Source of the DNA: an uncultured Gammaproteobacteria bacterium
GTDB lineage: Bacteria; Patescibacteriota; Microgenomatia; 2-02-FULL-39-11
Length of the DNA stretch: 64,000 nucleotides
Assembly (NCBI GenBank): GCA_964544585.1
Contig: CAZJBV010000001.1
Span: 119,717 to 183,716 of the forward strand
Reading direction: 5' to 3'
A program made the position numbers and the translations under genes. Positions 3,008-60,602 of the stretch are shown piece by piece (within the stretch, counting starts at the first letter, position 1; each line of letters begins with the position of its first letter). The notes under the pieces were generated by a model. It saw only the letters and a list, made by a program, of their open reading frames with translations. It made no database searches and had not been told where the DNA came from.

Positions 3008-3379
3008 TTATAACAGGGCCTTATGGAGGACTTCGAGGGGAAGAAGGGCGCATTTGAGGCGGGTGGGGGTGAGTTCGACGCCAAGCATTTGTAAAATATC
3101 GTCTTTGTTTAGCTTTTGCAGATCTTTCGTTGATTTTCCTTTGGCTAGTTCTGTAAGCATTGAAGCAGAGGCCATGGAGATGGCGCAGCCTTCGCCGGAA
3201 AAACGGATATCTTTAATAGTTTGTAGTTTGTAGTGGGTAGTGTGTAGTTTGAGAAATATTTTGAATTTGTCACCACAAAGAGGATTTTCCTCCTCTGCCT
3301 TTTTATCATGATTTTCCAACTCACCAAAATTTCTGGGATTTCTATAGTGGTCAAGGATATTTTCTCTGTATAAATCCAT
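3008..3379 (-). CDS. sufU: SUF FeS-cluster assembly sulfur-transfer protein SufU (IscU/NifU-like)
   Basis: Carries the LCGDKFKIFL and GEGCAISMASASMLTE conserved cysteines and the C-terminal KCALL motif. It lies downstream of sufS. Confidence 0.8.
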   Translation of the reverse strand: MDLYRENILDHYRNPRNFGELENHDKKAEEENPLCGDKFKIFLKLHTTHYKLQTIKDIRFSGEGCAISMASASMLTELAKGKSTKDLQKLNKDDILQMLGVELTPTRLKCALLPLEVLHKALL

Positions 3380-3404
3380 ATATGGAAATTTTAAATTTTT
3401 AATT

Positions 3405-4637
3405 TTAAATTTTAAATATCTTTTTTACTTTAAAGAGGCCTGCAACTAGTTTATCGACGTCTTCCTTTACATTATATATATAGAAAGAGGCACGGGATGT
3501 GGCGCCTAAGCCCAAGCGGATATGGAGAGGCATGGCGCAGTGGTGGCCTGATCTAATGCAAATGTTATCTTGGTTTAATATTTCTGCTATGTCGTGGGGA
3601 TGCAGACCTTTTATGGAAAATGCTACTACCCCACCTTTTATTTCAGGATCTTTTGGACCATAAATAGTCAATCCGGGAATTTCAGATAGTCTTTTTAGGG
3701 CGTATGATACGAGTTCTTTTTCGTGGGCACGAACGGCGTCTAACCCCAATGACGAGAGGTAATCGACTGCCGCACCTAGACCTATGGCTCCGGCGATATG
3801 GGGGGTACCGGCTTCGAATTTATGAGGAGGTTTTTTATAGATAGTATGATCAAGATGAACTTCTCTTATCATCTCTCCGCCCATCTGAAAGGGAACCATG
3901 GCATCAAGCAGATCGAATTTTCCCCAAAGAACTCCTGTGCCTGTCGGACCGAGCATTTTGTGGCCGGAGAAGACGAGAAAATCACAGCCAATTTCTTTGA
4001 CATTTACCGGCATGTGAGGGACGGATTGAGCAGCGTCGATAATGACTTTGATATCTTTGTTTCTTTTTTTGGCAATTTTTATGATTTCTTTAATAGGATT
4101 TATGGTTCCGAGAACATTGGATACGTGAGTGAGAGTAAGAATCTTAGTTTTGGGAGTGATTAGTTTATCTAAATTTTGCAAATTTAATTTATATTCATCA
4201 TTTATGTCGATGTACTTTAGGACTGATCCTGTTTCTGAGGACAACTCCTGCCAGGGAACAATATTGGCGTGATGTTCCATGACTGTGGAAATAATTTCAT
4301 CACCCTCTTCGATATTTAGTCTCCCCCAAGAATAGACAATAAGATTGATGGCTTCGGTGGCATTTCTGACGAATATGACTTCGTTTGGATTTTGGGCGCC
4401 AATAAATGTGGCGACTTTTTGCCGAGCCTGTTCATATTTTTCCGTTGCTTCTTCTGATAGAGTATAAAGACCGCGAAAGATATTGACTGAATACTGGGTG
4501 TAGTATTCGTTTATAGAATCGATAACTTTTTGAGGTTTTAATGAAGTAGCTGTTGAATCGAGATAGATGATAGGCTTGTTGTTTATTAGCCTTTTAAAGA
4601 TGGGAAAATCCACTTTGATTTGGGAATTAAATAACAT
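3405..4637 (-). CDS. sufS: cysteine desulfurase SufS (class V aminotransferase)
   Basis: A PLP-fold protein with the FSGHKMLGPTG lysine motif and the RSGHHCA active-site cysteine. The start is trimmed to the Met whose ATG abuts the upstream Rieske stop codon. Confidence 0.85.
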   Translation of the reverse strand: MLFNSQIKVDFPIFKRLINNKPIIYLDSTATSLKPQKVIDSINEYYTQYSVNIFRGLYTLSEEATEKYEQARQKVATFIGAQNPNEVIFVRNATEAINLIVYSWGRLNIEEGDEIISTVMEHHANIVPWQELSSETGSVLKYIDINDEYKLNLQNLDKLITPKTKILTLTHVSNVLGTINPIKEIIKIAKKRNKDIKVIIDAAQSVPHMPVNVKEIGCDFLVFSGHKMLGPTGTGVLWGKFDLLDAMVPFQMGGEMIREVHLDHTIYKKPPHKFEAGTPHIAGAIGLGAAVDYLSSLGLDAVRAHEKELVSYALKRLSEIPGLTIYGPKDPEIKGGVVAFSIKGLHPHDIAEILNQDNICIRSGHHCAMPLHIRLGLGATSRASFYIYNVKEDVDKLVAGLFKVKKIFKI

Positions 4638-5577: not shown

Positions 5578-5705
5578 CAACCTACGCTGCCTTCCCCCGT
5601 ACAATGCTTTCCGTTCGCGAGGGCTACGTCCTCGCCTCACGGTGGCGCATATACGGGGCTTCGAGCCGCAAAGCGGCTCTCGCATTTCTAACCTACGCTC
5701 CCTTC
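5578..5705. repeat. GC-rich hairpin insert flanked by 17-bp direct repeats (aacctacgctgccttcc / aacctacgctcccttcc)
   Basis: The second direct repeat encodes the last codons and stop of sufB. The first copy sits immediately before the sufD ATG. The interior carries the hairpins gagccgctttgcggctc and gcgaggacgtagccctcgc. Confidence 0.55.
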
Positions 5706-8102
5706 CATTTCCAGTTGAATAAGTCTATTTAGTTCGACTGCGTATTCGAGGGGGAGTTGTTTGACGATGGGTTCTATAAATCCATTGACGACCATGGCTT
5801 CGGCGTCTGGTTTGTTGATACCGCGACTCATGAGGTAAAATAATTGGTCATCGCCAATCTTTGAGACTGTTGCTTCGTGTTCGATGCGACAATCATTGTG
5901 TTTTATATCCATTGTCGGATATGTATCTGATCTAGACTCATCATCTATCAACAAGGCGTCGCAGACGACTTTGGATTTGGCGCCAATTGCACTTTGAAAA
6001 ACCTGAAGAAGTCCTCTATATGATGTCCTTCCTCCACCGTGACTGACCGATTTGGAAGTAATCTTCGAAGAAGTATATGGAGCAAAGTGAATGGCTTTTC
6101 CGCCTGCATCCTGGTGCTGGCCGGGTCCGGCATAGGCAACTGATAGCACCTCTCCTCGAGCTCCTTTGCCCATTAAATAGACGCTGGGGTACTTCATAGT
6201 AAGCTTGGAATTGTGAACTAAAATACCATTTGCAATAAAATTCCCTTTATCAACTTCTATATCAAATGTCTCTTTTGATCCTTGGGGTACAATGCTATTT
6301 ACTCGGACAAACTGAATTGTTGAATCTTTTTTATCATCTCCAAAATATAAGAAATGATGTTTATAAACTTTTTCTTCTATACCAAGTGGTTTTCTCTCTC
6401 TCCTTGTCCAAAGCGAAATTTTCCTTGGAGAAAATTTATCGGTTATGTAACTTAGGTCTTTGACTTGTTGTAATAATTTCTTATTTACCGATGTTATAGA
6501 TATATTTCTATGATTATCACGTCTATATCCATCTGCATCGATATAACCCTCGATGAATGATGTTATTTGGGATTTTGGTAATGTGTAGATCCATTCAGGA
6601 ACTTCTTTGTCTTGCGCTTTTCCTTTGAATCCAAGCTTTACCAAAAAATCAACAAATTTTGTGGAAGCATAACGAACAATATTTCTTTTTATTTCGGGTT
6701 TAAGTCCAAAAAGCTTATTTATTGTTTCAATAACCTTTTTAAAGCTTTTATCACTTTGTGGAACAGCTATATATACTCTTGTTTTGTCCATACATCCATC
6801 ACCAATGTAAAAACCTAGAAGCCATAGCAATTCTTCGCTGCTTATTTCCGGATAGAAAAACTCCTTTTTACCACGTTTGGGGTTAAAATGTATGGGATAA
6901 TTTTTTCCTACCCATGGAAGTTTTCCTGATACTGCAATTAAATCTCCAACTTTTATTTTATCTAAAGGCATCCAATTGAAGTAAGAAATTTTTCCTTTCT
7001 TTTTTAAGACAAGAAAAGGATGATTTGCAGTTGCTTCTACTTCACGAAAATCTTCTGTTGTGATTTTGAAAACTGGAAGGGGGGGATTTTTAACTTTAGC
7101 TAACAATTTGGCTCTTGTTAAGGTAAATTCTGGAGTCATCGAGTATAAATAGTCGCCCGGTCGAATGTCTTTAATGGAAAGAACATGATCATTTGCTATT
7201 ATTTTCGCATCCTCTGTTAAACATCCTAAATTACCGTCGATCCACTCGCCAATTCCCTCTTCTTCGACTCGCATTCTTTTGGTGACGAGATTGTAAACAT
7301 TGGTCGACCAGTTTTGAATGGTGGTATATCTGACTCGTGCTCCTTTTTTGACAAAAATTTCAACAACAGCGGCGTGAAGTGAATCTGTGGTATAAACGGG
7401 AGCGGTGCATCCTTCGACATAATGAACGAAACTACCCTCGTCGGCGATTATTAATGTTCTTTCAAACTGACCCATATTGGCGGCGTTGATACGAAAATAA
7501 GCTTGTAGAGGAAGTTCCACATTGACACCTTTGGGAACGTATATAAATGATCCGCCACTCCAAGTAGCCGAATTTAAAGCGGCGAATTTATTGTCATGTG
7601 GTGGAATGATTGTGCTAAAATATTCTTTGACCAAATCCGGATACTCACGAAGTCCTGAGTCCATATCCAAGAATACTACTCCTTTTTTGCCGAGAGTTTT
7701 TTGGATGCTTTTATATACGACTTCTGACTCATATTGAGCTGAAACACCGCCAAGATATTTTTTTTCTGCTTCTGGAATGCCAATTCGGTCGTAGGTTCGG
7801 CGAATTTCAATAGGTAAATCCTTCCAACTTCTAGCTTTTTTTTCTGTGGGTTTTATATAGTAATAAATGTTGTCGAAATTGATTTTGGAAAGATCTCCGC
7901 CCCAAGCAGGGAGTGTTTTTTTATAAAAGATGTCTAGAGCATCATGGCGAAATTTTCTCATCCAATCCGGTTCATTTTTGTGGTATGAGATTTCATCTAT
8001 CACTAAATGAGAAAGTCCTTTTTTAGACTTGAATGAATAGCGTTCGGCCTCGTGAAAGCCTAGAGGGTAGGAATCGTTAATTGCTATTTGTGATGTGGGC
8101 AT
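5688..8102 (-). CDS. sufB: FeS cluster assembly protein SufB interrupted by an intein
   Basis: An 804-aa ORF. The exteins carry conserved SufB blocks (NWSTNVYNLVTKR, WIDGNLG | SKLTMKYPSVYLMG, GEVLSVAYAGPGQHQDAGGK). A 338-aa insertion begins with Cys and ends with HN, followed by Ser. Confidence 0.85.
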   Translation of the reverse strand: MPTSQIAINDSYPLGFHEAERYSFKSKKGLSHLVIDEISYHKNEPDWMRKFRHDALDIFYKKTLPAWGGDLSKINFDNIYYYIKPTEKKARSWKDLPIEIRRTYDRIGIPEAEKKYLGGVSAQYESEVVYKSIQKTLGKKGVVFLDMDSGLREYPDLVKEYFSTIIPPHDNKFAALNSATWSGGSFIYVPKGVNVELPLQAYFRINAANMGQFERTLIIADEGSFVHYVEGCTAPVYTTDSLHAAVVEIFVKKGARVRYTTIQNWSTNVYNLVTKRMRVEEEGIGEWIDGNLGCLTEDAKIIANDHVLSIKDIRPGDYLYSMTPEFTLTRAKLLAKVKNPPLPVFKITTEDFREVEATANHPFLVLKKKGKISYFNWMPLDKIKVGDLIAVSGKLPWVGKNYPIHFNPKRGKKEFFYPEISSEELLWLLGFYIGDGCMDKTRVYIAVPQSDKSFKKVIETINKLFGLKPEIKRNIVRYASTKFVDFLVKLGFKGKAQDKEVPEWIYTLPKSQITSFIEGYIDADGYRRDNHRNISITSVNKKLLQQVKDLSYITDKFSPRKISLWTRRERKPLGIEEKVYKHHFLYFGDDKKDSTIQFVRVNSIVPQGSKETFDIEVDKGNFIANGILVHNSKLTMKYPSVYLMGKGARGEVLSVAYAGPGQHQDAGGKAIHFAPYTSSKITSKSVSHGGGRTSYRGLLQVFQSAIGAKSKVVCDALLIDDESRSDTYPTMDIKHNDCRIEHEATVSKIGDDQLFYLMSRGINKPDAEAMVVNGFIEPIVKQLPLEYAVELNRLIQLEMEGSVG
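6210..7223 (-). mobile_element. SufB intein with LAGLIDADG homing endonuclease domain
   Basis: Starts at Cys (CLTEDAKII) and ends in VHN followed by the +1 Ser. Two LAGLIDADG-like blocks are present (LLWLLGFYIGDGC and FIEGYIDADGY). It is inserted at the conserved GNLG/S site of SufB. Confidence 0.8.
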
Positions 8103-8874
8103 AGCCTTTTTCCTCCAATTCTTGGGCTAATTTTGGTCCTCCGGTTTTGACTATTTTACCATTAATTAAAATGTGGACAATATTGGGAGTAATATATTTT
8201 AAAATTCTTTGGTAATGAGTGATCATTAGTACTCCTGTACCATTTTTTTTCAATATATTTATACCCTGGGCGACGATTTTGAGAGCGTCGATATCAAGGC
8301 CGGTGTCGATCTCGTCAAAAATGACAAACTTTGGTTTCAATACCAATGCCTGTAGCATCTCAAGCTTTTTTTTCTCTCCTCCGGAAAAACTTTCATTTAT
8401 AGAACGGCGTAAGAATTCGTGAGGGATATGAAGTAAATCAGCTTTTTTTGCCAATTCTTCGTTGAATTTCCAAACTGTTTGCAAGGCAGGATTAGCGATG
8501 GTCTTTGGTCTTTGGTCTTTGGTCTTTGGTCCATGGAGAGATTCAAATGCATTTTTTAATAAATTGGCAACGGTGACACCTGGGACAGGGATGGGGTTTT
8601 GGAATGCTAAGAACAAGCCAGCCCTGGCACGCTTATCTGGAGAAAGATTTCTCATGTCCGTCTTGTCAATTTGAAATTTGATCCCGATTGAATCGGGATG
8701 AAATTTATAGGAGGGGTGTCCCATGAGAGCCTGAGCAAGGGTTGACTTTCCAGAACCATTGGGACCCATCAGGGCATGGACCTCTCCAGACTTTATTTGT
8801 AGCGATATGCCTTTCAAAATCTCTTTTTTTTCTAAGTAAACATGAAGATTCTCAATAGTTAGAGTGTGCTTCAT
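8077..8874 (-). CDS. sufC: FeS assembly ATPase SufC
   Basis: Has the Walker A motif GPNGSGKST, the ABC signature LSGGEKKK and Walker B. Its ATG overlaps the upstream stop in an ATGA arrangement. It contains an in-frame heptamer repeat (PKTKDQRPKT). Confidence 0.85.
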   Translation of the reverse strand: MKHTLTIENLHVYLEKKEILKGISLQIKSGEVHALMGPNGSGKSTLAQALMGHPSYKFHPDSIGIKFQIDKTDMRNLSPDKRARAGLFLAFQNPIPVPGVTVANLLKNAFESLHGPKTKDQRPKTIANPALQTVWKFNEELAKKADLLHIPHEFLRRSINESFSGGEKKKLEMLQALVLKPKFVIFDEIDTGLDIDALKIVAQGINILKKNGTGVLMITHYQRILKYITPNIVHILINGKIVKTGGPKLAQELEEKGYAHITNSN

Positions 8875-10061: not shown

Positions 10062-10259
10062 TTACATTGCCGGACCCTGCGAAGGAGGTGCTGACGGTTG
10101 GCCACCGCCGGTATTGCCAGTATCTCCACCTGATGGCGGAGGTGTAGGTTGGGGTGGAGGCGGCATTGGACCTGAATCTCCCGGAGGAGTTGGTTGTGGT
10201 CCACCCGGAGTTTGACCTGGCATACCTGGAGCTGGTGCATTTGGATCTTGCTGCATCAA
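10062..10259 (-). CDS. small proline/glycine-rich protein (65 aa) in a GC-rich island
   Basis: A strong SD (ggaggtga) lies 7 nt upstream of the ATG. It is the only one of three overlapping frames with an RBS. Local GC is far above the genome background. Confidence 0.5.
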   Translation of the reverse strand: MMQQDPNAPAPGMPGQTPGGPQPTPPGDSGPMPPPPQPTPPPSGGDTGNTGGGQPSAPPSQGPAM

Positions 10260-11850: not shown

Positions 11851-12663
11851 TCAAGAATTTGACCGGAAGAATTCGAGGGTGGTGCATTTGACCGATCCTC
11901 CGCCTTTGAAATATTCATTCATAGGTGTTTCAAAAACTTTTAATCCTTCTTTTTCCAGTGTCCTTTTTATATCTTTACTCATTCCCTTCCCTACAATTAC
12001 GGCATCATCGGTTGCTACTATATTACAACAAAAAAATGGGTTATCTTTTTTAGAAACTGTTATTACTTTGCGAAAATTCTTTTTTATTTTATCGATATCA
12101 TCATTTGAAAATGATGCTGGATGGATTATAACTTTGCCTTTTCCTAGAGGGGCAAAGCAGGTATCGAGGTGAAAGAAGTATGGATCTTTTTTTACCATAA
12201 AAGTAATAATTTTTTCTCCTAATATATTTTCAAGATGTCCGATTGCTTTTTTAGATGTTCTCCTGCCGTAGGCTGCGAAAAATTTACCATCTCTAAAAAA
12301 TAGATCACCTTGACCTTCAAAGTAGACATTTGATGGAAGAGTGGCTATTTTAAATTTTTTTTGGCGGAATAATTTTTCGGCAAAGTCCGATTCTTTTCTC
12401 CTTTGCTGGTAGCGGAAATTGGCTTTAATGAATAGATTGTCAATGACAAATCCGCAATTGGCAGTGTAAACCATATCAGGAAGGCCGGGTTCCGGATCCA
12501 TGATCCAGACATCAAGTCCGATTTTTTTGTAAATATTCTTGAGATTATCGAATTCTTCATGGGTTCTCTCGGGGTCGACTTTATTTTCCACGTGCATCCA
12601 GGGATTTATCTCGTATTCAATTTGATAGTATTTGGGCGGACACAAAAGGACTGTGTTGATCAT
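11851..12663 (-). CDS. amidinotransferase/DDAH-like guanidino-group modifying enzyme
   Basis: FHLDTCFAPL and the C-terminal GGGSVKCTT motif (catalytic Cys) are typical of the arginine deiminase/DDAH/amidinotransferase superfamily. Confidence 0.6.
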   Translation of the reverse strand: MINTVLLCPPKYYQIEYEINPWMHVENKVDPERTHEEFDNLKNIYKKIGLDVWIMDPEPGLPDMVYTANCGFVIDNLFIKANFRYQQRRKESDFAEKLFRQKKFKIATLPSNVYFEGQGDLFFRDGKFFAAYGRRTSKKAIGHLENILGEKIITFMVKKDPYFFHLDTCFAPLGKGKVIIHPASFSNDDIDKIKKNFRKVITVSKKDNPFFCCNIVATDDAVIVGKGMSKDIKRTLEKEGLKVFETPMNEYFKGGGSVKCTTLEFFRSNS

Positions 12664-12797: not shown

Positions 12798-13820
12798 ATG
12801 AAACACACTGGTGGAATTTTCAATTTTCTATTTCCAAGGAAGAATGGCGCCAATGGACTTTCTGATGTGATAAAAAAAAATGCCGATCAGTCGGGATCTA
12901 AAGAGCATTTTCAGCAAATATCAATTCAAAAGACGAAGTTGACTGTCATCCGGCAACCAAAAGAAGAGCACGTAGAATTTTTACGCGATAATTATCACAT
13001 CCATCCAATCCATCAAGAAGATGTTCTGTCAGCGGTGCAAAGACCAAAAATAGACTTTGAAGACAATTATATTTTTTTTGTGCTCCATTTTCCCTGGTTT
13101 AATGAAACTACTCAACGAATTGAATCCAGAGAAATTGACTTTTTCTTTCTGAAAACTGATTTGGTGATTATTATTAATGATGATTATCCTCCGCTTGAAG
13201 AGATACTGGATGTAATTTTACATGAATCAACTGTTAAAGATAGATATTTTGCCAAAGGAGCAGGATTTCTTCTATATCGAATCATTGATAACCTGGTTGA
13301 TACAATATTTCCGCTGGTAGAACAAATAGAAAGAAGTCTAGAACAAATTGATAAAGATGTCTTTACAAAAACAGCAAGGCATGTAGTCAAGAAGATATCA
13401 TTTTTAAGAAGAAATGTTATCTATTTCCAAACCATGGTTAAGCCAGAAATGAATTCATTTAGAGCCATGGAAGAAAAGCCTCATCCCTTGATAAATAAGG
13501 AATTGAAAACATATTTTTCAAATGTGACTGATCATTTTAAAAAACTCTTTGATAGGCTGGAAGATGCAAAAGAATTGACTGATAATTTATCATTAACATT
13601 TGAAAACTATTTATCTTTTCGGACAAATGAAACGATAAAATATCTGACTGTTTTTTCGGCTATTCTTATGCCATTAACGCTTCTTACAGGCGTATATGGA
13701 ATGAATTTGAGATTTCTACCTCTGGCTTCCGATCCTAAGGCAATATTTTTATTTATGGGAATAAGTTTTGTGATAGTGGTATCAATGCTATCTTATTTTC
13801 GCTTTAAACATCTCATATGA
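12798..13820 (+). CDS. corA: CorA-family Mg2+/Co2+ transporter
   Basis: Has the YGMN motif before two C-terminal TM helices, with typical length and domain order. Confidence 0.8.
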   Translation: MKHTGGIFNFLFPRKNGANGLSDVIKKNADQSGSKEHFQQISIQKTKLTVIRQPKEEHVEFLRDNYHIHPIHQEDVLSAVQRPKIDFEDNYIFFVLHFPWFNETTQRIESREIDFFFLKTDLVIIINDDYPPLEEILDVILHESTVKDRYFAKGAGFLLYRIIDNLVDTIFPLVEQIERSLEQIDKDVFTKTARHVVKKISFLRRNVIYFQTMVKPEMNSFRAMEEKPHPLINKELKTYFSNVTDHFKKLFDRLEDAKELTDNLSLTFENYLSFRTNETIKYLTVFSAILMPLTLLTGVYGMNLRFLPLASDPKAIFLFMGISFVIVVSMLSYFRFKHLI

Positions 13821-17365: not shown

Positions 17366-17838
17366 TTTAATATAATAATTGATACGTTGAGGAGGGAGGC
17401 AAAACTTACCCAGAAAAAATATGGAATGAGTAAATATGCCGCAACTTTGGATATTTTGGAAAATTTTAGAATAGTCAGAAGGATAAAAATCCAGAGAACT
17501 ATGATATCAATAAAGCCGAGTATTGGAGAGTGCAGTCCAAAAAAGAGAAAAGACCAGAGGGAATTTAGAAAAAGCTGGATGACGAAAAATAAGAGTGCTG
17601 TTTTGACTAAATTTTTGTTGATTCCTCTTTCCCATATTAGATAGGCCGCGTAGCCCATCATAAAATACAGGACAGTCCAGACGGGACCGAATATCCAATT
17701 TGGAGGTGAGAAAAAAGGTTTGGCGAGGGTTGCATACCAGACAGGAATTGCATTTATGGTCACGGGAGTAGCTATGAGTCCAACTAATTCGCACAGTAAA
17801 ATTGTAAATATCAGCCTGGCAGGGTGTTTTACTCGCAT
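17362..17838 (-). CDS. tspO: TspO/MBR tryptophan-rich sensory protein
   Basis: A five-TM, 158-aa protein with the PPNWIFGPVWTVLY motif. Confidence 0.8.
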   Translation of the reverse strand: MRVKHPARLIFTILLCELVGLIATPVTINAIPVWYATLAKPFFSPPNWIFGPVWTVLYFMMGYAAYLIWERGINKNLVKTALLFFVIQLFLNSLWSFLFFGLHSPILGFIDIIVLWIFILLTILKFSKISKVAAYLLIPYFFWVSFASLLNVSIIILN

Positions 17839-19026
17839 AATTTTACTATACTATATTTAGTGAAAAATATTTTAATTCTATTTGCTATTTTAATTTTTAT
17901 AGGAGCGGGAGGATTTTATTTTTGGACATCGAAGAATAAAAATACTCCCCCTTCCCCCATTCAACAAATTCCTTCTGTTTCTCGCGAAAAAATAGATAGT
18001 GAAAGTCCACCTATAGCAGTAGTAGCAGAAAATCTTGAAGTGCCATGGGCAATTGCTTTTTTGCCTGCCTCGCCGGCAGGCGGGCCAGACGGGGGAATGC
18101 TTGTAACAGAAAGACCAGGAAGAGTGAGATTTATTGATAATGATGGAAAACTAGATTCTACTCCAGTTGCGACTATAGATTCTGTCAATGCCGTTGGAGA
18201 GGGAGGACTGATGGGAATTGCGCTCCATCCAGATTTTGAGAAAAATCAATATGTATATCTTTACTATACTTATGATGGAAGTGGTAATAATACTTCAAAT
18301 CGATTGGTGCGGATGAGATTTGAAAATAATCACTTGGCAAACGAAGAAATTTTGGTAGATAGTATTCCAGGAGCAAGCAATCATAACGGAGGAAGAATAA
18401 AGTTTGGACCGGACGGATTTCTTTATATAGGAACGGGAGATGTCCAAGAGCCGTCACAATCACAGAATAGAAATACACTGGGAGGAAAAATTTTGAGAGT
18501 TACAGACACTGGTAAACCGGCGCCAGGAAATCCATTTGGAAATGAAGTTTACTCTTATGGACATAGAAATGTGCAAGGACTGGCGTGGGATAGTCGCGGC
18601 CAGATGTGGGCGACGGAACACGGACCATCAGGAATTTGGCCAAACTGTTGCCAGGATGAAATAAATCGAATTGAACAGCAAGGAAACTATGGGTGGCCTC
18701 AAAGTGTCGGAGATAAAGTTGCCGCTGGAACTGTTGGTCCTATGTTTCATTCAGGAAGAGATATTTGGGCACCGAGCGGCGCTTCCATTGTGGGAGACTC
18801 ATTCTTTTTTGCGGGTCTACGAGGAGTCACTTTGTATGAGGCAGTTATAGAAAATGGGGAGGTCACTGAGGTAAAAGAGCATTTCAAGGGACAATTTGGA
18901 AGATTGCGGGAGGTAGTTGTCGGGCCTGATAATATGCTTTATATAACAACTAGCAATAGAGATGGAAGGGGCAAACCTCAAAGCGGTGATGATAAAGTAA
19001 TAAGAGTGAATCCTAATCTTCTTTAG
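17824..19026 (+). CDS. PQQ-dependent soluble sugar (aldose) dehydrogenase, YliI/SGDH family, membrane-anchored
   Basis: Carries beta-propeller motifs (PWAIAF, GRVRFID, NHNGGRIKFGPDG, YSYGHRNVQGLAWD, YGWP) after an N-terminal TM segment. Confidence 0.75.
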   Translation: MFYSHNFTILYLVKNILILFAILIFIGAGGFYFWTSKNKNTPPSPIQQIPSVSREKIDSESPPIAVVAENLEVPWAIAFLPASPAGGPDGGMLVTERPGRVRFIDNDGKLDSTPVATIDSVNAVGEGGLMGIALHPDFEKNQYVYLYYTYDGSGNNTSNRLVRMRFENNHLANEEILVDSIPGASNHNGGRIKFGPDGFLYIGTGDVQEPSQSQNRNTLGGKILRVTDTGKPAPGNPFGNEVYSYGHRNVQGLAWDSRGQMWATEHGPSGIWPNCCQDEINRIEQQGNYGWPQSVGDKVAAGTVGPMFHSGRDIWAPSGASIVGDSFFFAGLRGVTLYEAVIENGEVTEVKEHFKGQFGRLREVVVGPDNMLYITTSNRDGRGKPQSGDDKVIRVNPNLL

Positions 19027-19975: not shown

Positions 19976-21010
19976 ATGAATACTGTAGAAGCAATCAACG
20001 CCTTAGCTCGACGGAAGAATGTATTTAAAACCTCAGATGTAATTCGGATACTTGGGGGTAATGTGTCGCGTCAATTTGTAAGTCGTATACTGCGAAATCT
20101 GGTTTCTGAAGGACAACTCGTTAAGGGCGGCTCTACAAAAAGTGCAATCTATGCCCTTCCCCAGAATGCTACTTTTTTAAGAATTGGAACGAGAAAAAGA
20201 CTATTAAATAAAAATCTTAAGGAACATGAAGTATGGGAGAATCTGAAGGAGCAAACTCCTTTAATCAATAACCTCCCAGAAAATATTCAAAGCATACTTG
20301 ATTATGCTTTTACGGAAATGCTTAATAATGCTATTGAACATTCCCACTCTGATTATATTGAGGTTGGATTGAAAGAGGAATCCCGCTTTATTCGCTTTAT
20401 CGTTAATGATTTTGGAATAGGAGTATTTAGAAGTGTGATGAAGAAGAGAAAACTCCATTCAGAGCTTGAGGCGCTACAGGATCTTCTCAAAGGTAAAGTT
20501 ACAACACAACCCCAATCGCACTCCGGGGAAGGAATTTTTTTTACATCTAAAGTAGCGGATATTTTCATATTAGAAAGCTTTGACTTAAGACTTCGGATAG
20601 ACAATACTATTTCTGACATTTTTGTTGAGGAACTTAAACCTAAAAAGAATGGTACTAGGGTAATTTTTAGTATTTCCAAAGAATCTATTAAGCATTTAAT
20701 AAATATTTTTCAAAAATATCAATCCACAAAAGATACCTATGCATTTGATAAAACTGAAGTTCATGTTCGTCTATATACAATGGGAACGATATATATATCG
20801 CGATCACAAGCTAGGCGTATACTAGCAGGTTTAGAAAAGTTTAAACTTGTAATATTGGATTTTGACCGTGTTCCAACTATCGGTCAAGCTTTTGCTGATG
20901 AAGTATTTCGAGTGTTTAGAAATTTGCATCCTGAAATAGAGATTCGGCCAATCCATTTGAATGAGGCAGTCCGGTTTATGATCGAAAGGGTTGAACATGA
21001 AAAATTATAG
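19976..21010 (+). CDS. wHTH - GHKL ATPase - DUF4325 (STAS-like) domain protein
   Basis: An N-terminal winged-helix domain, then a HATPase_c-like N box (EMLNNAIEHS) and G box (DFGIGVF), then a C-terminal STAS-like block typical of DUF4325. Confidence 0.55.
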   Translation: MNTVEAINALARRKNVFKTSDVIRILGGNVSRQFVSRILRNLVSEGQLVKGGSTKSAIYALPQNATFLRIGTRKRLLNKNLKEHEVWENLKEQTPLINNLPENIQSILDYAFTEMLNNAIEHSHSDYIEVGLKEESRFIRFIVNDFGIGVFRSVMKKRKLHSELEALQDLLKGKVTTQPQSHSGEGIFFTSKVADIFILESFDLRLRIDNTISDIFVEELKPKKNGTRVIFSISKESIKHLINIFQKYQSTKDTYAFDKTEVHVRLYTMGTIYISRSQARRILAGLEKFKLVILDFDRVPTIGQAFADEVFRVFRNLHPEIEIRPIHLNEAVRFMIERVEHEKL

Positions 21011-25003: not shown

Positions 25004-26439
25004 GAAGGTAATGATTGCAGGCGTTTTACAACCTCACCCTTGCCTAATATTTCCATAGACTCATTTAAGGGTGGAGAGATTTTTTTGCCGGTGATGGCTA
25101 CTCGGACTGCCATAAAAAAGTCGCTACTTTTGTAGCCCTCTTTGGCGACGAGGTCTTGCATTGCTTGGCCGATAGACGGGGCTGTCCAATTGTTTATCCG
25201 CTCTAAAGATTTGACTAATTGGGCTAATTGGTCTTTTTTGGAAGAAAGATCGATTTCACGTTTTTCGGGGCGGCGGAAGAAAAATTCACACAGAGGTAGA
25301 TAGTCTGATAATTTTTTAATACGCTCCTGAATTAATGGAATCGTCTTTTCGACAATATTTTGGTCATATTTTTTTCCAATAAAGTCTGTAATTTTAAATT
25401 TTAAATTTTCAATTTTGAATTTGCGTATGTATTCTCCATTCATCCATTCAAGTTTCTTAAGATCAAATGCTGGACCAATTGGCTTAACATCCTCGAGTCT
25501 AAAATTTTTTATCATTTCGGAGAGAGTAAATATCTCTCTTCCATCGGGCATAGACCAACCCATGAGGGCAAGAAAATTTAATATGGCTTCGGGGAAAAAA
25601 CCTTGCTCTATATACCATGATGCCCAAACGGGATTTTTTCTTTTTGAGAGCTTGCTTTTGTCGGGATTACGCAAAATCGGTCCATGGGCAAAAATGGGGA
25701 GAGGCCAGCCTAAAAATTTGTAGATGAGAATATGTTTGGGAGTTGAAGAAATCCATTCTTCAGCACGGATGACGTGGGTAATTTTCATAAGATAATCATC
25801 GACAACGACGCCAAGATGATAGGTTGGGTAGCCGTCGGATTTTAAGAGTACCTGATCGTCTATTAATTTATTTTCGAATGTTATTTTGCCGCGGATGACG
25901 TCGGTAAAATCTGTTGTTCCTGAATCAGGAACGTTGAGGCGGATGACGTGTTTAGTATTAGGTTGTAGGTTGTAGGTTGTAGGTTGTAGGTTTTTACAGT
26001 GGCCGTCGTACATGGGAGGCAATCCTTTTGCGGCTTGGTCTTTTCTCATTTGTTCTAATCTTTCCGGTGTACAAATGCAATAATAGGCATGACCTTTTTG
26101 TACTAACTCTTCGGCGTATTTTTTATAAAAATCTAGTCTTTCTGATTGCCTATATGGAGCATAGGGTCCGCCTATATCCGGACCTTCATCATAATCTAGG
26201 CCAAACCAATGAAGAGAAGTTAAGATCCTTTCCTCTCCCCCTTTTACTAATCTTGTTCTATCTGTATCTTCGATTCTGACGATAAATTTTCCTTTATTTT
26301 TTTGGGCAAAAACGTAATTTAAGAGCGCTGTATAGACATTTCCGATATGAAGATCTTCTCCGGTTGGGGAAGGGGCGATGCGAACACGAACAGCATGCAT
26401 AGACCGTTTGATAATAGCATAGGGACTTACTATACTCAA
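25000..26439 (-). CDS. gltX: glutamate--tRNA ligase
   Basis: Has the HIGH-type motif PSPTGEDLHIGN and the KLSKRK motif. The true start may be the internal Met 13 codons downstream. Contains two in-frame simple-repeat tracts. Confidence 0.85.
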   Translation of the reverse strand: MSIVSPYAIIKRSMHAVRVRIAPSPTGEDLHIGNVYTALLNYVFAQKNKGKFIVRIEDTDRTRLVKGGEERILTSLHWFGLDYDEGPDIGGPYAPYRQSERLDFYKKYAEELVQKGHAYYCICTPERLEQMRKDQAAKGLPPMYDGHCKNLQPTTYNLQPNTKHVIRLNVPDSGTTDFTDVIRGKITFENKLIDDQVLLKSDGYPTYHLGVVVDDYLMKITHVIRAEEWISSTPKHILIYKFLGWPLPIFAHGPILRNPDKSKLSKRKNPVWASWYIEQGFFPEAILNFLALMGWSMPDGREIFTLSEMIKNFRLEDVKPIGPAFDLKKLEWMNGEYIRKFKIENLKFKITDFIGKKYDQNIVEKTIPLIQERIKKLSDYLPLCEFFFRRPEKREIDLSSKKDQLAQLVKSLERINNWTAPSIGQAMQDLVAKEGYKSSDFFMAVRVAITGKKISPPLNESMEILGKGEVVKRLQSLPS

Positions 26440-32592: not shown

Positions 32593-32957
32593 AGTAATCT
32601 AGCCATAATCCCGTACAAAGCTTACTTGCTCGCATGGTTTACATCCATGCCTCGCGAGGGCGCTTATACGGGATTGATCGGCTGGTAAACTCTCCGCTAG
32701 ATGGCGGATCGTTAACCAGCCATCAAAAAATCACCTTTCTGAAGGGTGATATAAATCACGGTGCCACCTTGCTTTTCCGCCAGAAATGGGCGGACTTATT
32801 TATTGCTATTACGGGCTTGCCCGGCAAGGTCTACTTATAAAGATATGAGGATAAATGATAAACGATATGAAGAAAATTATTTCTTATCTTTTATCTTGTA
32901 TCTCTTATCTTATATTTTCTTCTTGCGGCTCGGGTGTGTCTGGCACCGTCATCGCCT

Positions 32958-34620: not shown

Positions 34621-35994
34621 ATGAAATATGCTCTTCCAGAAGAAGTTGGGAAAACTTTGCAGAAATTGCGAAATGCAGGGTTTGAGGCGTATGCGGTCGG
34701 AGGATGTGTGCGCGATCTTTTGTTGGAAAAGGAAACAAAGGATTGGGATTTTACCACCAATGCAACTCCGGAACAGATACTCTCACTTTTTCCAGATGGC
34801 TTTTATGATAATAAATTCGGAACGGTAGGAGTGCCGATAGAGTTAAAAGTTAAAAGTGAAAAGTTAAAAGTTGTTTATGAAATCACAACATACAGGATGG
34901 AGCATGGATATTCTGATCACAGGAGACCCGATAAAGTGGTGTGGGGAACTAGCCTCTCCGATGATCTCTCTAGGCGCGATTTTACAATCAATGCCATGGC
35001 TTATGACGGAAAAAAATTTTTTGATCCGTTTGAGGGAAAAAAAGATTTGGAGAAAAAATTAGTCCGGGCAGTAAGAAATCCAGAAGAACGATTTGCCGAG
35101 GATGCGCTCAGGATGATGAGGGCGGTAAGATTTGCTAGTGAATTGAGATTTACTATCGAGGAAAAAACATTTGCGGCCATACAAAAACATGTAAAACTCA
35201 TTAGTCATGTCTCTCATGAAAGAATAAGAGAAGAACTCGTGAGGATACTTTCATCATACTCCCCTGCTGACGGAATACTTCTTCTGAGAAATGGCGGACT
35301 TTTGGAAGTTATTCTTCCTGAAGTGGAAAGATGTTTCGGCGTCGAACAAAAAAGTCCCAAACGCCACCATATTTATGATGTAGGGACACACCTCGTTGAA
35401 TCATTGAGACATTGTCCTTCTCACGATCCTATCGTCAGGCTGGCGACGCTGCTTCATGACACGGGAAAAGCAGAAACGTACGCAAAAACAGATGAGGGAG
35501 TGATTACTTTTTATAATCATGAAATATTAGGAGGATCGATAGTCTTCAATATAGCCGAACGATTGAGGTTTTCTAAAAAGGAGAGAGAAAAGTTGGTAAC
35601 TCTGGTGAGATGTCATCAATTTACTGTTGATGAGAGACAGACTGATAAGGCTATACGTAGATTTATTAGAAATGTTGGCAGCGAAAATTTAGATGATATG
35701 CTTGCAGTTCGTATTGGAGACAGACTGGGAGGAGGAGCGACGGAAACTTCGTGGAGGCTGGAACTGTTTAAGAAGCGGCTGGTGGATGTACAAAAGCAAC
35801 CTTTTACTGTGGCAGACCTCAAAGCAGATGGAAATGATGTGATGAAAATCTATGGAATAGGATCTGGACCGTTGGTTGGGGTAGCACTCGATATGCTTTT
35901 TAATGATGTAGTTGAAGGAAAAATCAAAAACGAGCGCGAAGCACTTTTGCAAAGAATTGAGGATTTGAAGAAGGAAAGTAAGATAGGAAAGTAA
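34621..35994 (+). CDS. cca: CCA-adding tRNA nucleotidyltransferase with HD domain
   Basis: Has the polymerase beta head GGCVRD..L.....D.D and an HD domain (HD...LLHDTGK). Contains an in-frame heptamer repeat (ELKVKSEKLKV). Confidence 0.8.
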   Translation: MKYALPEEVGKTLQKLRNAGFEAYAVGGCVRDLLLEKETKDWDFTTNATPEQILSLFPDGFYDNKFGTVGVPIELKVKSEKLKVVYEITTYRMEHGYSDHRRPDKVVWGTSLSDDLSRRDFTINAMAYDGKKFFDPFEGKKDLEKKLVRAVRNPEERFAEDALRMMRAVRFASELRFTIEEKTFAAIQKHVKLISHVSHERIREELVRILSSYSPADGILLLRNGGLLEVILPEVERCFGVEQKSPKRHHIYDVGTHLVESLRHCPSHDPIVRLATLLHDTGKAETYAKTDEGVITFYNHEILGGSIVFNIAERLRFSKKEREKLVTLVRCHQFTVDERQTDKAIRRFIRNVGSENLDDMLAVRIGDRLGGGATETSWRLELFKKRLVDVQKQPFTVADLKADGNDVMKIYGIGSGPLVGVALDMLFNDVVEGKIKNEREALLQRIEDLKKESKIGK

Positions 35995-41335: not shown

Positions 41336-41382
41336 AAGTATTAGTTAAATTAGACTAATTAGACTAATTAGTTTTGAAATTT

Positions 41383-41438: not shown

Positions 41439-43373
41439 CTAGCGTCTAGTTTTCAGAAACTCTAAAATGGATCTTTTTTTCTCGTCAAAGAGGGCATCGA
41501 TATAAGAGAGAAGATTGGCAGGATTTAAAAGGCAGCTTTTTATATTATATTGGCAGTCGGGGGCGAAGAAAATGGGAATATTTTTGGCGAGAATCTTTCC
41601 GTCGAGACTAATATAAATTTCTGTGTTTATACTTTTATCGGAACTAATGTCGATAAACCAAGGAGAAATTCTATAGGAATAATCGGTTGGGTAAGAAAAA
41701 TTTTGGAAAGATAAACCATTTCCTTTAATGTCTACTTTTTCCACTTGAGTTGCGCGACTAAATTTATTTCTAGGGAGGATAAAAATTCGGATTGGGTTTC
41801 TTCCGGCTATGGCTTTGGTATTATTCCAATAGACTATAGTTTTTTTGGGATCCATTTCTAATGGGCTTTTGTCAGGCTGGAAAAGAAAATCGAGATTTGA
41901 CAAAAGGTTTTGGTTTTTTATTCCCGGAATAAGTTCAAAAGAATCTTTTTTATCTAGTATTTGCAAAAAAGGAATTTCGTTTCCATTTATATCCCATCCC
42001 ATTTCGATGTATCCACTGGTTGGATTGAGGAAGAGTTTAGGGTGCCTAGGAAATGATAGAGTTACTTTCTTTCGTTTCTTCAAAAGATCGGCAAATAACA
42101 TGCCATTTGTGAATGAAGGATTTCTGCTTTTAGCAATTGTGATCGAATGGGGTCCGAAATGGACTTTAGTGTCGATGTTTGTTTTGTCTAATGAAATGCC
42201 GAAATTGAATTGGGAATTATCTAAAATATAGGGAACAATCCAGTAGGCAAAATCTAATCTTGCTGGATTTTCTTTGTATGGATCGTTTAGATTGGCATAA
42301 ATGCGTAGATCATCGAGGATCCAGTGATCTTCTTTTTTTATGACTCTTGCCCTATATGTTTTGCTAAAGTACCAGAAGACGGAGTTATTTTCCAAAGTTC
42401 TAGACGGGTTTTGGCTGTTTTGAAATTGAAAAATCTCGATAAACTTGCTGATGGGGAGGATGGCAATTTTTTCTTTTTCCCTCAGATCTTTCAAGTAGTT
42501 GAGTTGTCTCATATACTCTTTACCATAGTCATCCCAGGAAAAAGAGTTTTCGAAACCTATTAGTCCAAATCCATCATTCTGTTTTACTATCTCTTTGACA
42601 AGCTTCTCAAAATAGTTTTTTTCTGCTTTTGGATTTGAGAGGTAGTCATTTGGTTGAGAAGTAAAATAGGCTTTGGACGAACCATAATTTTTGAGAATAT
42701 CGGAAATGGTTTGACGAACAATAATAATATCCAGTTTATCTTCATCATAACCCGGGAGGAGAGGATGATTTTTAGATGGATAATAGGGTAAATTGAACAT
42801 TCCGCCATATAAGGTATAAGAATCTGTCTCGTATTGTTCCTTTGTAAGCTCGTGAAGATTTACTCCGTAAATGTCGTGGATATAATTTAGTGACCAAGCA
42901 TCTATCATCCAAGCAACTGTAAATTCTGGATATGTGCCAAAAATATTTTTATACTTAGTAAAAAGTGTATCGATGAGTTTTTTTCTTTCTTCGATCGTGT
43001 ATCCAATAAGAAATGTATTTTTGGCACTATTCCAATTGCTACCATCGGGAAAGCCTTTGTAATCCACACCACTTGCTGACGCGAGAGAGGGAGTAATTTC
43101 AAGAAGTAGACCGAGTTCGTCATCTTTGATGGGAGAAATATATCTTTCATTTAAAGCGTCGAAGCGGAGGGCCCAGGCTGTGGGAAGAGTCTGAATTTCT
43201 TTATCCTTTGATATGGTTTTTAATATATCAGTACTTCCATTTTGACAGCATGATTCGTCACCCCTAACCTGATTGATGATAAGAAAAGTGGGTTCTTTGG
43301 AAAGTGCGGGTTTAGCGAAAATAAATAATAGAATGATGAAAAGTCCTATTTTTTTTAGAAAATTTAATACCAT
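41439..43373 (-). CDS. large secreted hypothetical protein
   Basis: A signal peptide and a 644-aa soluble protein with no firmly recognisable motif. Confidence 0.4.
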   Translation of the reverse strand: MVLNFLKKIGLFIILLFIFAKPALSKEPTFLIINQVRGDESCCQNGSTDILKTISKDKEIQTLPTAWALRFDALNERYISPIKDDELGLLLEITPSLASASGVDYKGFPDGSNWNSAKNTFLIGYTIEERKKLIDTLFTKYKNIFGTYPEFTVAWMIDAWSLNYIHDIYGVNLHELTKEQYETDSYTLYGGMFNLPYYPSKNHPLLPGYDEDKLDIIIVRQTISDILKNYGSSKAYFTSQPNDYLSNPKAEKNYFEKLVKEIVKQNDGFGLIGFENSFSWDDYGKEYMRQLNYLKDLREKEKIAILPISKFIEIFQFQNSQNPSRTLENNSVFWYFSKTYRARVIKKEDHWILDDLRIYANLNDPYKENPARLDFAYWIVPYILDNSQFNFGISLDKTNIDTKVHFGPHSITIAKSRNPSFTNGMLFADLLKKRKKVTLSFPRHPKLFLNPTSGYIEMGWDINGNEIPFLQILDKKDSFELIPGIKNQNLLSNLDFLFQPDKSPLEMDPKKTIVYWNNTKAIAGRNPIRIFILPRNKFSRATQVEKVDIKGNGLSFQNFSYPTDYSYRISPWFIDISSDKSINTEIYISLDGKILAKNIPIFFAPDCQYNIKSCLLNPANLLSYIDALFDEKKRSILEFLKTRR

Positions 43374-47661: not shown

Positions 47662-48894
47662 TTAATTTAAATTTCCTTTAGCAAGATTGGGTTTGTTGAT
47701 GAGGTTTTCGAGGATTTGCCAGCGGGATTTTTTTTCGCTGTGAGGAATGTCATCTTTGAAGGCTTTGTGGGCGGCGGTTGCGGGGCGGTCTGAATACATG
47801 GAAATGTAAGCTTTATAAAAACCGACTTTTTTGGCAAGGTCAACTGTATCTAAAAATTCCTCTTCTGATTCGCCGCAGAAACCAACAATAATATCAGTAC
47901 TCAATTTTAAATTTTCAATTTTAAATTTTAAATTTTTTACAAGATCTAAATATTGTTCCCTAGTATACCAGCGGTTCATGCGTTTTAAGACAGAATTGCT
48001 TCCTGACTGGACCGGCAAATGAATTGATCTTGTCACTTTTGGGTTGTGGGCGATAACGTCTATCAATACTTCGGAAAAATCCCAGGGATTTGAAGACATA
48101 AAATCTATTTCCCCAATTCCCTCAATTTTACAGATATCTTTTAACAGATAAGGAAAAAGAGTTGGGATGCGGTATCGGTTCAGGTGTTTAACATAAATTG
48201 GTTTTATTTGGGAATTTTCAATTTTAAATTTTAAATTTTCATTCAATTTTAAATTTTTAATTTTTGAATTATCAAAATATGTGTTTTTAATATCTCTCAT
48301 TACATGAATATTTTCGGAACCTAAAATTAGATCTGCACCGTATGAATTGACGTTCATACCAAGGAGGGTAATCTTTTTGTAGCCGTGGTTGGCAAGTTCT
48401 TGACATTCTTTTATAACTTCATTGTATGGCCTACTTATTTCGCGGCCGCGAGTAAAAGGGACGACGCAAAAAGTACAAAAATTATTGCAGCCGTTTGAAA
48501 TTGGGACCCAGGCATTTAGGGCATTTGTGCGAAGGGGTGCATGGTCGAAGCCTACTTCTTCAATGGGCAAAAACTCGTCAACTTCGGGCATTCTTATTTT
48601 TAGGAGTTTTAAAAATTTGCCTGTTTTATCTCTTGCGGCCATTCCGACCATACAGCCGGTAACGACAATTTTTTCGGGCATGCCTGTAGTACGCTTTTTT
48701 TTGGTCAAATTGTTGACAAGACCATAGACGCGGTTTTCCGCCATTTCCTTGACCATGCAGGTATTGATGATGATATGATTTGCGGCATCAATATTTTTTG
48801 CTTTTTCCATGCCGCGGGCTTCAGGCATGGCGGCAATACGCTCTGAATCCGAAACATTCTGCTGGCAGCCAAAAGTTTGGATAAAGTATTTCAT
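47662..48894 (-). CDS. miaB: tRNA methylthiotransferase MiaB-like (radical SAM)
   Basis: An N-terminal MTTase domain (FIQTFGCQQN...C), the radical SAM motif CNNFCTFC, and a TRAM domain. The start is trimmed to MKYFIQTFGC. Two in-frame AATTTTA-type repeat tracts are present. Confidence 0.8.
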   Translation of the reverse strand: MKYFIQTFGCQQNVSDSERIAAMPEARGMEKAKNIDAANHIIINTCMVKEMAENRVYGLVNNLTKKKRTTGMPEKIVVTGCMVGMAARDKTGKFLKLLKIRMPEVDEFLPIEEVGFDHAPLRTNALNAWVPISNGCNNFCTFCVVPFTRGREISRPYNEVIKECQELANHGYKKITLLGMNVNSYGADLILGSENIHVMRDIKNTYFDNSKIKNLKLNENLKFKIENSQIKPIYVKHLNRYRIPTLFPYLLKDICKIEGIGEIDFMSSNPWDFSEVLIDVIAHNPKVTRSIHLPVQSGSNSVLKRMNRWYTREQYLDLVKNLKFKIENLKLSTDIIVGFCGESEEEFLDTVDLAKKVGFYKAYISMYSDRPATAAHKAFKDDIPHSEKKSRWQILENLINKPNLAKGNLN

Positions 48895-60495: not shown

Positions 60496-60602
60496 AGATA
60501 TTGACAGCTCAAGAATAATTCTATACAATTAGGTTAATCGAAAATGAATCGAAAGTCAAGTGGTTAAAATTTAACCTGAAGATTAAAGGGGGTGATGAAA
60601 AT

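Follow-up and report, generated by a model that had tools for sequence, protein, structure and literature searches.

The DNA examined here, called the window, is a stretch of 64,000 nt (positions 119,717 to 183,716 of contig CAZJBV010000001.1, assembly GCA_964544585.1) deposited under the name of an uncultured Gammaproteobacteria bacterium and placed by GTDB in the Microgenomatia of the Patescibacteriota; all coordinates are positions in the window unless another locus is named. The subject is a short tandem repeat with a 7-nt unit inside the iron-sulphur cluster assembly gene sufC, together with the class of heptamer arrays to which it belongs. The coding sequence of sufC (8077-8874, minus strand) is intact and specifies 265 amino acids (aa), 100% identical to an NCBI protein named 'Fe-S cluster assembly ATPase SufC [Candidatus Gottesmanbacteria bacterium]' on a 205-kb contig. 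Its best matches among solved structures are the SufC chains 2d2e (E = 3.5e-68), 2zu0 and 11mp, the nucleotide-binding segments MGPNGxGKST, SGGEKK, FDEIDTGLD and THY are invariant in an alignment of 29 SufC homologues (A1), and the downstream neighbours are sufB (with an intein), sufD and sufS. The gene therefore shows the motifs of an ATP-binding cassette ATPase, SufC-specific similarity and a suf operon context, and its identification as sufC in an earlier account made from the letters and their translations (the sequence-only reading) holds. Separately, the SufB of the window (5688-8102) is an 804-aa protein with an intein and a LAGLIDADG homing-endonuclease domain; the identical sufB gene in assemblies L085 and L086 matches the Pfam families Intein_splicing and LAGLIDADG_3, and SufB in the relatives L001, L003, L172 and L173 has no intein and measures 461-466 aa.

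Within sufC, the unit TGGTCTT is repeated 4.7 times as a perfect period-7 array of 33 nt (8499-8531), found by both Tandem Repeats Finder (TRF) and an exact-period scan with 26 of 26 period-7 matches, and the period is broken at base 8532. On the minus (coding) strand the unit reads GACCAAA/AAGACCA and the array lies in frame, coding for SufC residues 115-126 (GPKTKDQRPKTI). The sequence-only reading had correctly seen a perfect tandem repeat here and had given the right peptide (PKTKDQRPKT, residues 116-125), but its bounds (8505-8532) were a few bases off and its length of 28 nt, or four copies, was an understatement. It had also pointed out that the unit is not a multiple of three and that a slip of one unit would shift the frame of sufC, which is correct; its surprise at meeting such a repeat in this gene was justified.

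The residues encoded by the array fall in a variable loop, which in the 29-sequence alignment follows a helix ending in …A[YF][EQ]S[LI] and precedes a conserved NPAL. In an AlphaFold2 model of SufC (mean predicted local distance difference test score, pLDDT, 86.6), residues 115-128 are a coil between helices 102-114 and 129-147, and the two ten-residue blocks with the lowest mean pLDDT are 111-120 (66) and 121-130 (50). The array product is a short, probably disordered surface loop of the helical subdomain. At the level of RNA, the array is less structured than controls (z = +1.5; a fold at least as good was obtained for 193 of 200 shuffles), and a search of the whole window against Rfam at gathering thresholds returned two tRNAs and no family match for the arrays.

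The length of the tract is stable at the level of consensus sequences. Three further assemblies of the organism (L084, L085 and L086, which comprise NCBI GCA_016186845.1 and the Logan assemblies of runs SRR12113430 and SRR12113424) are 99.88-100% identical to the window, one of them coming from a strain at 99.88%, and none has an insertion or deletion in the tract, contrary to the instability that had been anticipated for it. The presence of an identical tract in independent assemblies rules out an assembly artefact, and the identical array length in all four argues against phase variation.

The sequence-only reading had also counted the sufC tract as one of several in the window, and this is borne out: seven strong arrays occur, all of period 7, with weaker ones added by TRF, and 30 second-order Markov shuffles gave none at any period from 4 to 15. 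The density of arrays is about 109 per Mb in the window versus about 3.5 per Mb (5 arrays) in some 1.41 Mb of unrelated genomes. Contigs matched by SufC in genome and metagenome scans, which came almost only from distant phyla, served solely as background for array density. Under one scanning rule applied throughout, twelve Gottesmanbacteria loci totalling 238 kb contain 22 arrays at period 7 and zero at periods 4, 5, 6 and 8; of these, 17 measure 27-35 nt, the mode being 33-34 nt. By comparison, 2.1 Mb from other phyla yield similar numbers of arrays at periods 6, 7, 9 and 12. The sufC tract thus has both properties of a long simple sequence repeat (LSSR) in the sense of Mrazek, being longer than expected by chance and having an over-represented period. 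Period-7 arrays were also noticed outside the Microgenomates, in the locus L048 of an uncultured gammaproteobacterium (12342-12373 and 20390-20424; 32 and 35 nt) and in a Peribacteria contig, L078, where a perfect (TGCTTAC)n array extends over 57 nt (1486-1542).

Across SufC homologues the array occupies a slot of nearly constant length. Measured between the anchors GV[ST]VxN[LF]L[KR] and NP, the loop has 20 aa in all four array-bearing sequences and mostly 18-20 aa in those with no array, which does not fit the suggestion that the tract is a lineage-specific insertion. The content of this slot (loop B) varies. The SufC gene of L001 (69% identical to the window at the protein level) carries the same unit with one mismatch (CCAACGACCAAAGACCAAAGACCAAAGACC), L172 (60% identical) a perfect (ACAAACA) x4.4 array of 31 nt, and L173 (63% identical) a (TCAGAGG) x4.9 array of 34 nt with 23 of 27 period-7 matches; L002 (65% identical) retains a decayed period-7 remnant and L003 (68% identical) has the slot with no array. 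The units GACCAAA (window and L001), ACAAACA and TCAGAGG, unrelated to one another, have therefore been found in one and the same place. Between the window and L001, 29 of the 30 nt of the array codons are identical, compared with 65% in the rest of the gene and 41% at third codon positions, and the array is the most conserved 30-nt segment of sufC in this comparison. It had been proposed that homologues with the same residues and no nucleotide periodicity would point to chance, but the closest homologue with these residues, L001, has the 7-nt periodicity as well. SufC has a second slot, site A (about residues 57-67), at which array-derived peptides occur in 21 homologues and plain heptamer arrays occur in other lineages (DNA from six genomes).

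The same pattern is seen in glutamyl-tRNA synthetase (GltX), which has two slots, site 1 just after a YDGxC motif and site 2 after NGEYIR. Both are filled in the window, on the minus strand: site 1 by a perfect (AACCTAC) x4.9 array of 34 nt (25959-25992; peptide NLQPTTYNLQP) and site 2 by an array of unit AAATTTA (25390-25422; peptide KFKIENLKFKI). In L087, whose GltX is 76% identical, site 1 contains (AAACTAC) x4.7, and hence a single base differs from the window at the same position in every copy of the array. Elsewhere, site 1 has a perfect AAAACCA array in L088, a degenerate AAGTTAA array in L090 and, in place of an array, a GC-rich palindrome in L089, while site 2 has AAATTTA/AAATTGA in the window and L090, a perfect (AAATATC) x4.9 in L088, an interrupted AAAACTC array in L089 and a 16-nt palindrome in L087. 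A comparable slot exists in the CCA-adding enzyme, where the unit is AGTTAAA in the window, CCAACCA in L088 and CAATTAA in L090; L087 lacks it, and its protein is 9 aa shorter.

These slots can also be recognised in protein sequences. At GltX site 2, 36 of 107 homologues have at least 9 of 11 residues explained by a perfect 7-nt array, with about 20 different units, versus 1 of 600 random control windows. A scan of whole proteins found peptides with at least 9 of 10 residues explained in this way in 39 of 120 GltX and 27 of 120 SufC homologues; in GltX every match falls at one of two slots, and the same is true of SufC with one exception (P0098, C-terminal). The loop at GltX site 1 occurs in length classes of 8-10, 13-18 and 22-25 aa, spaced by about 7 aa, or three units; loops of the long class consist of an array plus a GC-rich insert and not of a longer array. 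Heptamer arrays are thus not peculiar to sufC, and are a clade-wide property located at fixed permissive sites in several housekeeping proteins.

Nearly all other arrays of the window are likewise inside long open reading frames (ORFs). On the minus strand, the gene for the 2-oxoacid:ferredoxin oxidoreductase alpha subunit (porA; ORF 970-2697) has an imperfect array with coding unit AAACTAC at 1194-1226 (peptide LQTTNYSLRTNY), the NifU/SufU-like gene nifU has an imperfect CAAACTA array at 3217-3251 (peptide KLHTTHYKLQTI), and an AAAATTT array at 3386-3417 extends from the 3' end of sufS into the spacer that precedes nifU, furnishing the sufS stop codon (…KIFKI*). The MiaB-like radical-SAM gene, on the same strand, has two arrays of the AAAATTT family, one at 47903-47936 (unit AAAATTT; peptide NLKFKIENLKL) and an interrupted one of 58 nt at 48213-48270. 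On the plus strand lie a short, imperfect AATTTTC x3.3 array at the N-terminus of a CorA-like gene (12815-12837) and an AGTTAAA array in cca, a gene of the CCA-adding/poly(A) polymerase family (34841-34872; peptide ELKVKSEKLKV). The only intergenic array is non-coding and degenerate, with period 7 and plus-strand unit TTATCTT (32877-32915), in the spacer between the end of recJ (32958) and the start of a gene resembling phosphoenolpyruvate carboxylase (32592); a period scan bounds it at 32877-32910 (34 nt) and TRF at 32884-32915. On the coding strand the units of the window are A-rich, giving peptides rich in K, T, Q, N and P. The sufC unit AAGACCA has no second copy in the 64 kb, and the flanks of 11 window arrays have no common sequence beyond the array itself. 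A miniature mobile element inserted in frame, such as a miniature inverted-repeat transposable element or one of the Rickettsia palindromic element (RPE-like) kind, was rejected on the grounds of these unshared flanks and of the little or no length that the arrays add.

Substitutions within the arrays indicate that they are read by the ribosome. Were an AAATTTA array perfect, its reading frame would include a TAA, and at exactly that codon GltX, MiaB and L090 have GAA; in site 2 of the window GltX this is brought about by a T-to-G substitution, and the first MiaB-like array has the same TAA-to-GAA change. Units that would yield TGA have TTA at the corresponding codon. Such stop-avoiding substitutions argue that the arrays are translated and filtered by selection. 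Change between neighbouring copies is also apparent, as GltX site 2 of L174 reads AAAACTC twice and then AAATCTC twice, which is a pattern of copying between neighbours. Among GltX clusters of at least 90% identity, the array sites show point changes, with site 2 contributing 7 of 125 variable columns in about 2.4% of the protein length. Apparent 7-aa length differences in GltX were rejected, all of them being alternative calls of the N-terminal start. At site 1, within one 90%-identity cluster, P0161 has KKDQRSKIKDQKY (an AAAGATC array, to judge from the peptide) and P0254 has KESQISGKKY, encoded in L174 (3001-4386) by 2.3 units of AATCTCA; both the unit and the length (by 9 nt) have thus changed abruptly between the two.

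Some array slots contain hairpin-forming sequence. At SufC site A in the window, a near-perfect 33-nt palindrome (8674-8706, minus strand) forms the hairpin ATCCCGAT-TCA-ATCGGGAT, with 16-nt arms that are 94% complementary and an RNA fold of -17.9 kcal/mol (z = -2.4); it codes for KFHPDSIGIKF and has AAATTTC heptamer units on its flanks, and the sufC of L001 has a different GC-rich hairpin at this position. A second element is a GC-rich hairpin of 21 nt, present in the window at 18064-18084 on the plus strand (CCTGCCTCGCCGGCAGGCGGG), in frame in ORF 17824-19026 with the peptide PASPAGG. As CCTGCCTCGCCGGCAGGCAGG, it is found in four Gottesmanbacteria genomes, in frame and in unrelated genes, the other copies being at L171 3224-3244, L088 2813-2833 and L001 1695-1715. 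Two of these copies, near-identical to that of the window, interrupt heptamer arrays, namely the one at GltX site 1 in L171 and one in recJ of L088, and in both the 7-nt register runs on across the insert. With arrays making up an estimated 0.5% or so of the DNA, the location of two of the four copies within arrays has by our own arithmetic a chance probability on the order of 1e-4. The third element is the 16-nt palindrome TCCGCCAGCTGGCGGA, intergenic in the window (50084-50099), which is also in GltX array slots of L089 (1622-1637) and, with one substitution, of L087 (10992-11007), where it is translated as IRQLAD and leaves the slot length of L087 unchanged. Embedded hairpins have accordingly been seen in GltX site 1 of L171, in RecJ of L088, in SufC site A of the window and L001, and in GltX of L087 and L089.

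The class to which the sufC array belongs spans the Gottesmanbacteria and neighbouring Microgenomates, and its members measure about 33 nt (4.4-5 units) and lie in housekeeping proteins, at a few permissive slots about 11 codons long. The reading that we favour, and to which we give about half of our confidence, is that the sufC array is a member of a lineage-wide class of heptanucleotide microsatellites that is renewed by templated copying of units, is confined by selection to permissive loops and has no demonstrated function. In this scheme templated copying would both create and renew the arrays, candidate processes being slipped-strand or out-of-register replication and repair, and possibly exchange between arrays of one genome. 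Point substitution would erode them between renewals. A selective filter would retain only those outcomes in which the frame is kept, no stop codon arises and the peptide is tolerated by the loop, and its result on the coding strand would be the A-rich units and the K/T/Q/N/P-rich peptides; the arrays themselves would be neutral. The recurrence of different units in the same slot, the one-base changes carried by whole arrays, the stop-avoiding substitutions and the neighbour-copy patterns speak for it. It is further favoured by the restriction to period 7, the concentration of array-like peptides at two slots in GltX and SufC, the position of the sufC product in a low-confidence coil, the constant length in four assemblies and within GltX clusters, the spacing of GltX site 1 loops by about three units, and the known abundance of heptanucleotide repeats in prokaryotes.

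Several results weigh against this scheme. Clusters of GltX at 90% identity or more contain no variants of +/-7 aa at array sites, and variants of +/-3 units were not seen between close relatives; the sole event seen is the complex replacement of unit and length between P0161 and P0254/L174. At GltX site 2, over protein identities of 55-80%, similarity of units tracks protein identity only weakly (Mantel-type test, r = -0.15; 173 of 2000 permutations; not significant). Units are within one mismatch of each other in 26% of locus pairs within a genome versus 8% between genomes (19 of 5000 permutations), and such sharing across loci is not predicted by purely local slippage. Two intergenic arrays, that of the window at 32877-32915 and one in L090 (5156-5188), are also 33-34 nt long, so frame selection by itself does not suffice to fix the length. 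Compared with orthologues that lack an array, proteins bearing one have mostly gained little or nothing in length (0 aa in NifU, +2 aa in PorA compared with L003, and about +1 aa in SufC), and this near-zero gain looks like overwriting and not expansion. Slippage leaves unaccounted for both the exclusivity of period 7 and the clustering of lengths at 31-35 nt, and the 29/30-nt match of the sufC array to L001 exceeds the conservation that neutral turnover predicts.

In another explanation, the arrays and their embedded GC-rich hairpins would form a system of very small dispersed or mobile elements, analogous to the tandem heptamers and small dispersed repeats of cyanobacteria, with copy-paste or ectopic conversion writing patches of about 33 nt into permissive sites, of which the sufC tract would be one. 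The greater sharing of units within than between genomes, the presence of unrelated units with nearly equal boundaries in one slot across lineages, the abrupt replacement between relatives more than 90% identical and the fact that arrays between genes also measure about 33 nt are all in line with this, as are the 21-nt hairpin in four genomes (with two copies inside arrays and a continuous register), the 16-nt palindrome in the GltX slots of L087 and L089, and the long site 1 loops composed of an array and a GC-rich insert. However, the arrays have no conserved termini, target-site duplication or shared flanks, no candidate enzyme was identified, and the units are highly diverse, numbering about 20 at GltX site 2 alone. 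Neighbour-copy gradients and one-base changes of whole arrays are typical of local turnover, and the sufC unit is single-copy in the window. On balance we regard this explanation as rather unlikely.

A role of the nucleic acid itself seems distinctly unlikely to us. Here an mRNA or single-stranded DNA segment that is A-rich, unstructured and periodic at 7 nt would be the target of a multi-domain or oligomeric protein, for example ribosomal protein S1, a cold-shock protein (Csp) or the single-stranded DNA-binding protein, and would affect translation, mRNA decay or replication. That the periodicity and not the peptide recurs at a site would be expected in this case, and the exceptional conservation of the array between two diverged sufC genes and the low structure of its RNA relative to shuffles point the same way; binding by S1, Csp or Csr has been proposed for the TAACTGA repeats of Beggiatoaceae (PMC4679880). 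Yet units differ so widely within and between genomes that one sequence-specific partner is improbable, and in the same genes the arrays are decayed or missing in L003, L002, L089 and (at the CCA-enzyme site) L087. Nor are the arrays consistently placed with respect to the starts or ends of genes, and Rfam returned zero family matches.

Phase variation of SufC, in which slippage would toggle the gene as at a contingency locus such as neuO with its AAGACTC repeat, we consider very improbable. The resemblance lies in a heptanucleotide repeat within a coding region, its unit being no multiple of three (PMC13001214). Against it, SufC is a housekeeping Fe-S assembly ATPase and not a surface or host-interaction protein, there are only 4.7 copies, whereas neuO has 3-53 and is out of frame in 66% of genomes, and the tract keeps one and the same length across four assemblies and the 69%-identical orthologue L001. 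No copy-number change is seen in the consensus sequences of L084-L086 or in L001, and similar arrays lie in gltX, cca, nifU, porA and the miaB-like gene, none of which is accessory. That the repeat arose by chance, or as an artefact of assembly or sequencing, has nothing in its favour except the shortness of the tract and can be dismissed in view of the zero arrays in shuffles, the identical tract in independent NCBI and two SRA-run assemblies and the homologous arrays in different species from different studies.

Three further candidates were discarded. A G-quadruplex (G4) was rejected as TGGTCTT/AAGACCA offers GG at most and the other units of the window have no G runs. A programmed -1 frameshift site was rejected for the sufC unit, since AAGACCA does not fit the pattern X XXY YYZ; AAATTTA units elsewhere in the window do fit this slippery pattern. 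Selection for a heptad helix in the protein was rejected as a sufficient cause, the DNA itself being 7-nt periodic, often perfectly, and several of the peptides being proline-rich loops.

The window has a few other features of note. A large ORF resembling a serine recombinase (55809-57410) runs with its 3' end antisense through a tRNA gene (55844-55915) and is followed by ORFs of 281 aa (58075-58920) and 535 aa (58921-60528), the second of which, to judge from its sequence, joins a LexA-like domain to a DNA methyltransferase; the region may mark the edge of an element integrated at the tRNA. A perfect 9-nt repeat, AATTAGACT x2.7 (41348-41371), which is also a 93%-complementary palindrome, is located just downstream of the minus-strand ORF 41439-43373. 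An AT-rich stretch with 10/20-nt periodicity and overlapping inverted repeats (CAATATATTG motifs) lies at 63375-63418, in the spacer beside a signal-peptidase-like ORF (62652-63314). Lastly, a 65-aa Pro/Gly-rich ORF (…PAPGMPGQTPGGPQPTPPGDSGPMPPPPQPTPPPSGG…; 10062-10259, minus strand) lies in a locally GC-rich patch of this genome of 39% GC, and a 64-aa gene is called at its position in L084.

Heptanucleotide repeats are not new in prokaryotes. In the account of Mrazek, Guo & Shah (2007), as related in PMC4692102 and PMC4679880, they are the most abundant class of LSSR in most prokaryotic genomes, and polymerase slippage tied to the contact length of the polymerase is the cause proposed for them; as related in PMC4679880, units that are a multiple of three were likeliest in coding regions. 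The arrays described here, which belong to bacteria of the Candidate Phyla Radiation (CPR), resemble these LSSRs, so far as they are characterised in those accounts, in the over-representation of tandem 7-nt units relative to other unit lengths, but differ from them in being coding, in housekeeping genes, in conserved slots and of a narrow length of about 33 nt. In Geobacter metallireducens, dispersed elements are built from tandem heptanucleotides, four copies in the case of GGACCGG and five in that of MTYCTGA, and lie both in genes and in the DNA between them (PMC2700814). The likeness lies in the four to five tandem heptamers, the dispersed family and the occurrence also within genes; in Geobacter, however, one GC-rich unit is dominant with 49 copies and a regulatory role is proposed (PMC2700814), whereas here there are many A-rich units and no regulatory context is evident. 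The CPR slots, unlike the Geobacter elements, recur clade-wide with turnover of the unit.

The heptamer repeats of cyanobacteria, the short tandemly repeated repetitive (STRR) sequences described by Mazel in 1990, are mainly intergenic. Elhai and colleagues are said to have found in 2008 that tandem heptamers of Nostoc, in genome-specific families, host small dispersed repeat (SDR) hairpin elements of 21-27 nt. We know of no explanation for the origin of the cyanobacterial repeats. The CPR arrays are like this system in their dispersed heptamers with genome-specific unit families and in the GC-rich hairpins of 21 nt and 16 nt inside arrays; they are unlike it in that they are translated, within genes of an essential type, and belong to the reduced CPR genome of an unrelated lineage, and their hairpins are not known to share sequence with the SDRs. 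The STRR repeats serve for fingerprinting (PMC5088731).

Translated heptamers are known from neuO of the E. coli K1 phage CUS-3, an accessory gene in which a variable number tandem repeat of 5'-AAGACTC-3' with 3-53 copies, out of frame in 66% of genomes, acts as a phase switch (PMC13001214). The units are similar (AAGACTC versus AAGACCA), and in both cases the frame is kept only at certain copy numbers, but neuO is hypervariable and the sufC array, with 4.7 copies in a housekeeping gene, is invariant across assemblies. Xanthomonas and Nostoc have G4-forming heptamer repeats, GGGAATC/GGGGAYT, with a mode of four units (PMC4692102), and the TAACTGA repeats of Beggiatoaceae have two to six copies (PMC4679880). 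Both resemble the CPR arrays as short tandem heptamers at many loci that are characteristic of each genome; the G3 tracts that G4 formation requires are absent from the CPR arrays. What sets the latter apart is that they are translated, lie in conserved housekeeping slots, are stable in length and show unit turnover across a whole clade of the CPR.

No description of such arrays in CPR genomes was found in literature on the CPR, on Gottesmanbacteria and on tandem heptamers, in a search that was in part too broad to be conclusive, and the published work consulted offers only hypotheses for the 7-nt unit and for the low copy number. As the CPR arrays are inside conserved housekeeping genes, alignment of orthologues fixes their position, register and length. 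The reading frame exposes which changes selection has permitted, so that one can follow directly, across hundreds of genomes, how arrays arise, are renewed, change their unit and decay. The arrays also have a bearing on how the proteins of reduced genomes acquire and remodel disordered loops. Annotation and alignment pipelines will take the 11-residue segments for ordinary variable loops, though a process at the nucleotide level appears to dictate their sequence.

More speculatively, and doubtful as we hold it to be, Microgenomates bacteria of the CPR may possess a hitherto unrecognised sequence-writing process by which a 7-nt seed is copied in tandem, time and again, over set stretches of essential genes about 33 nt long; the process would also exchange units between loci of one genome and offer landing pads for GC-rich hairpins of 16-21 nt. 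If true, this would be the coding-region counterpart of the cyanobacterial heptamer/SDR system, and, since the constraints of frame and peptide leave a readable record of evolution, the 7-nt rule of prokaryotic repeats could then be put to the test.

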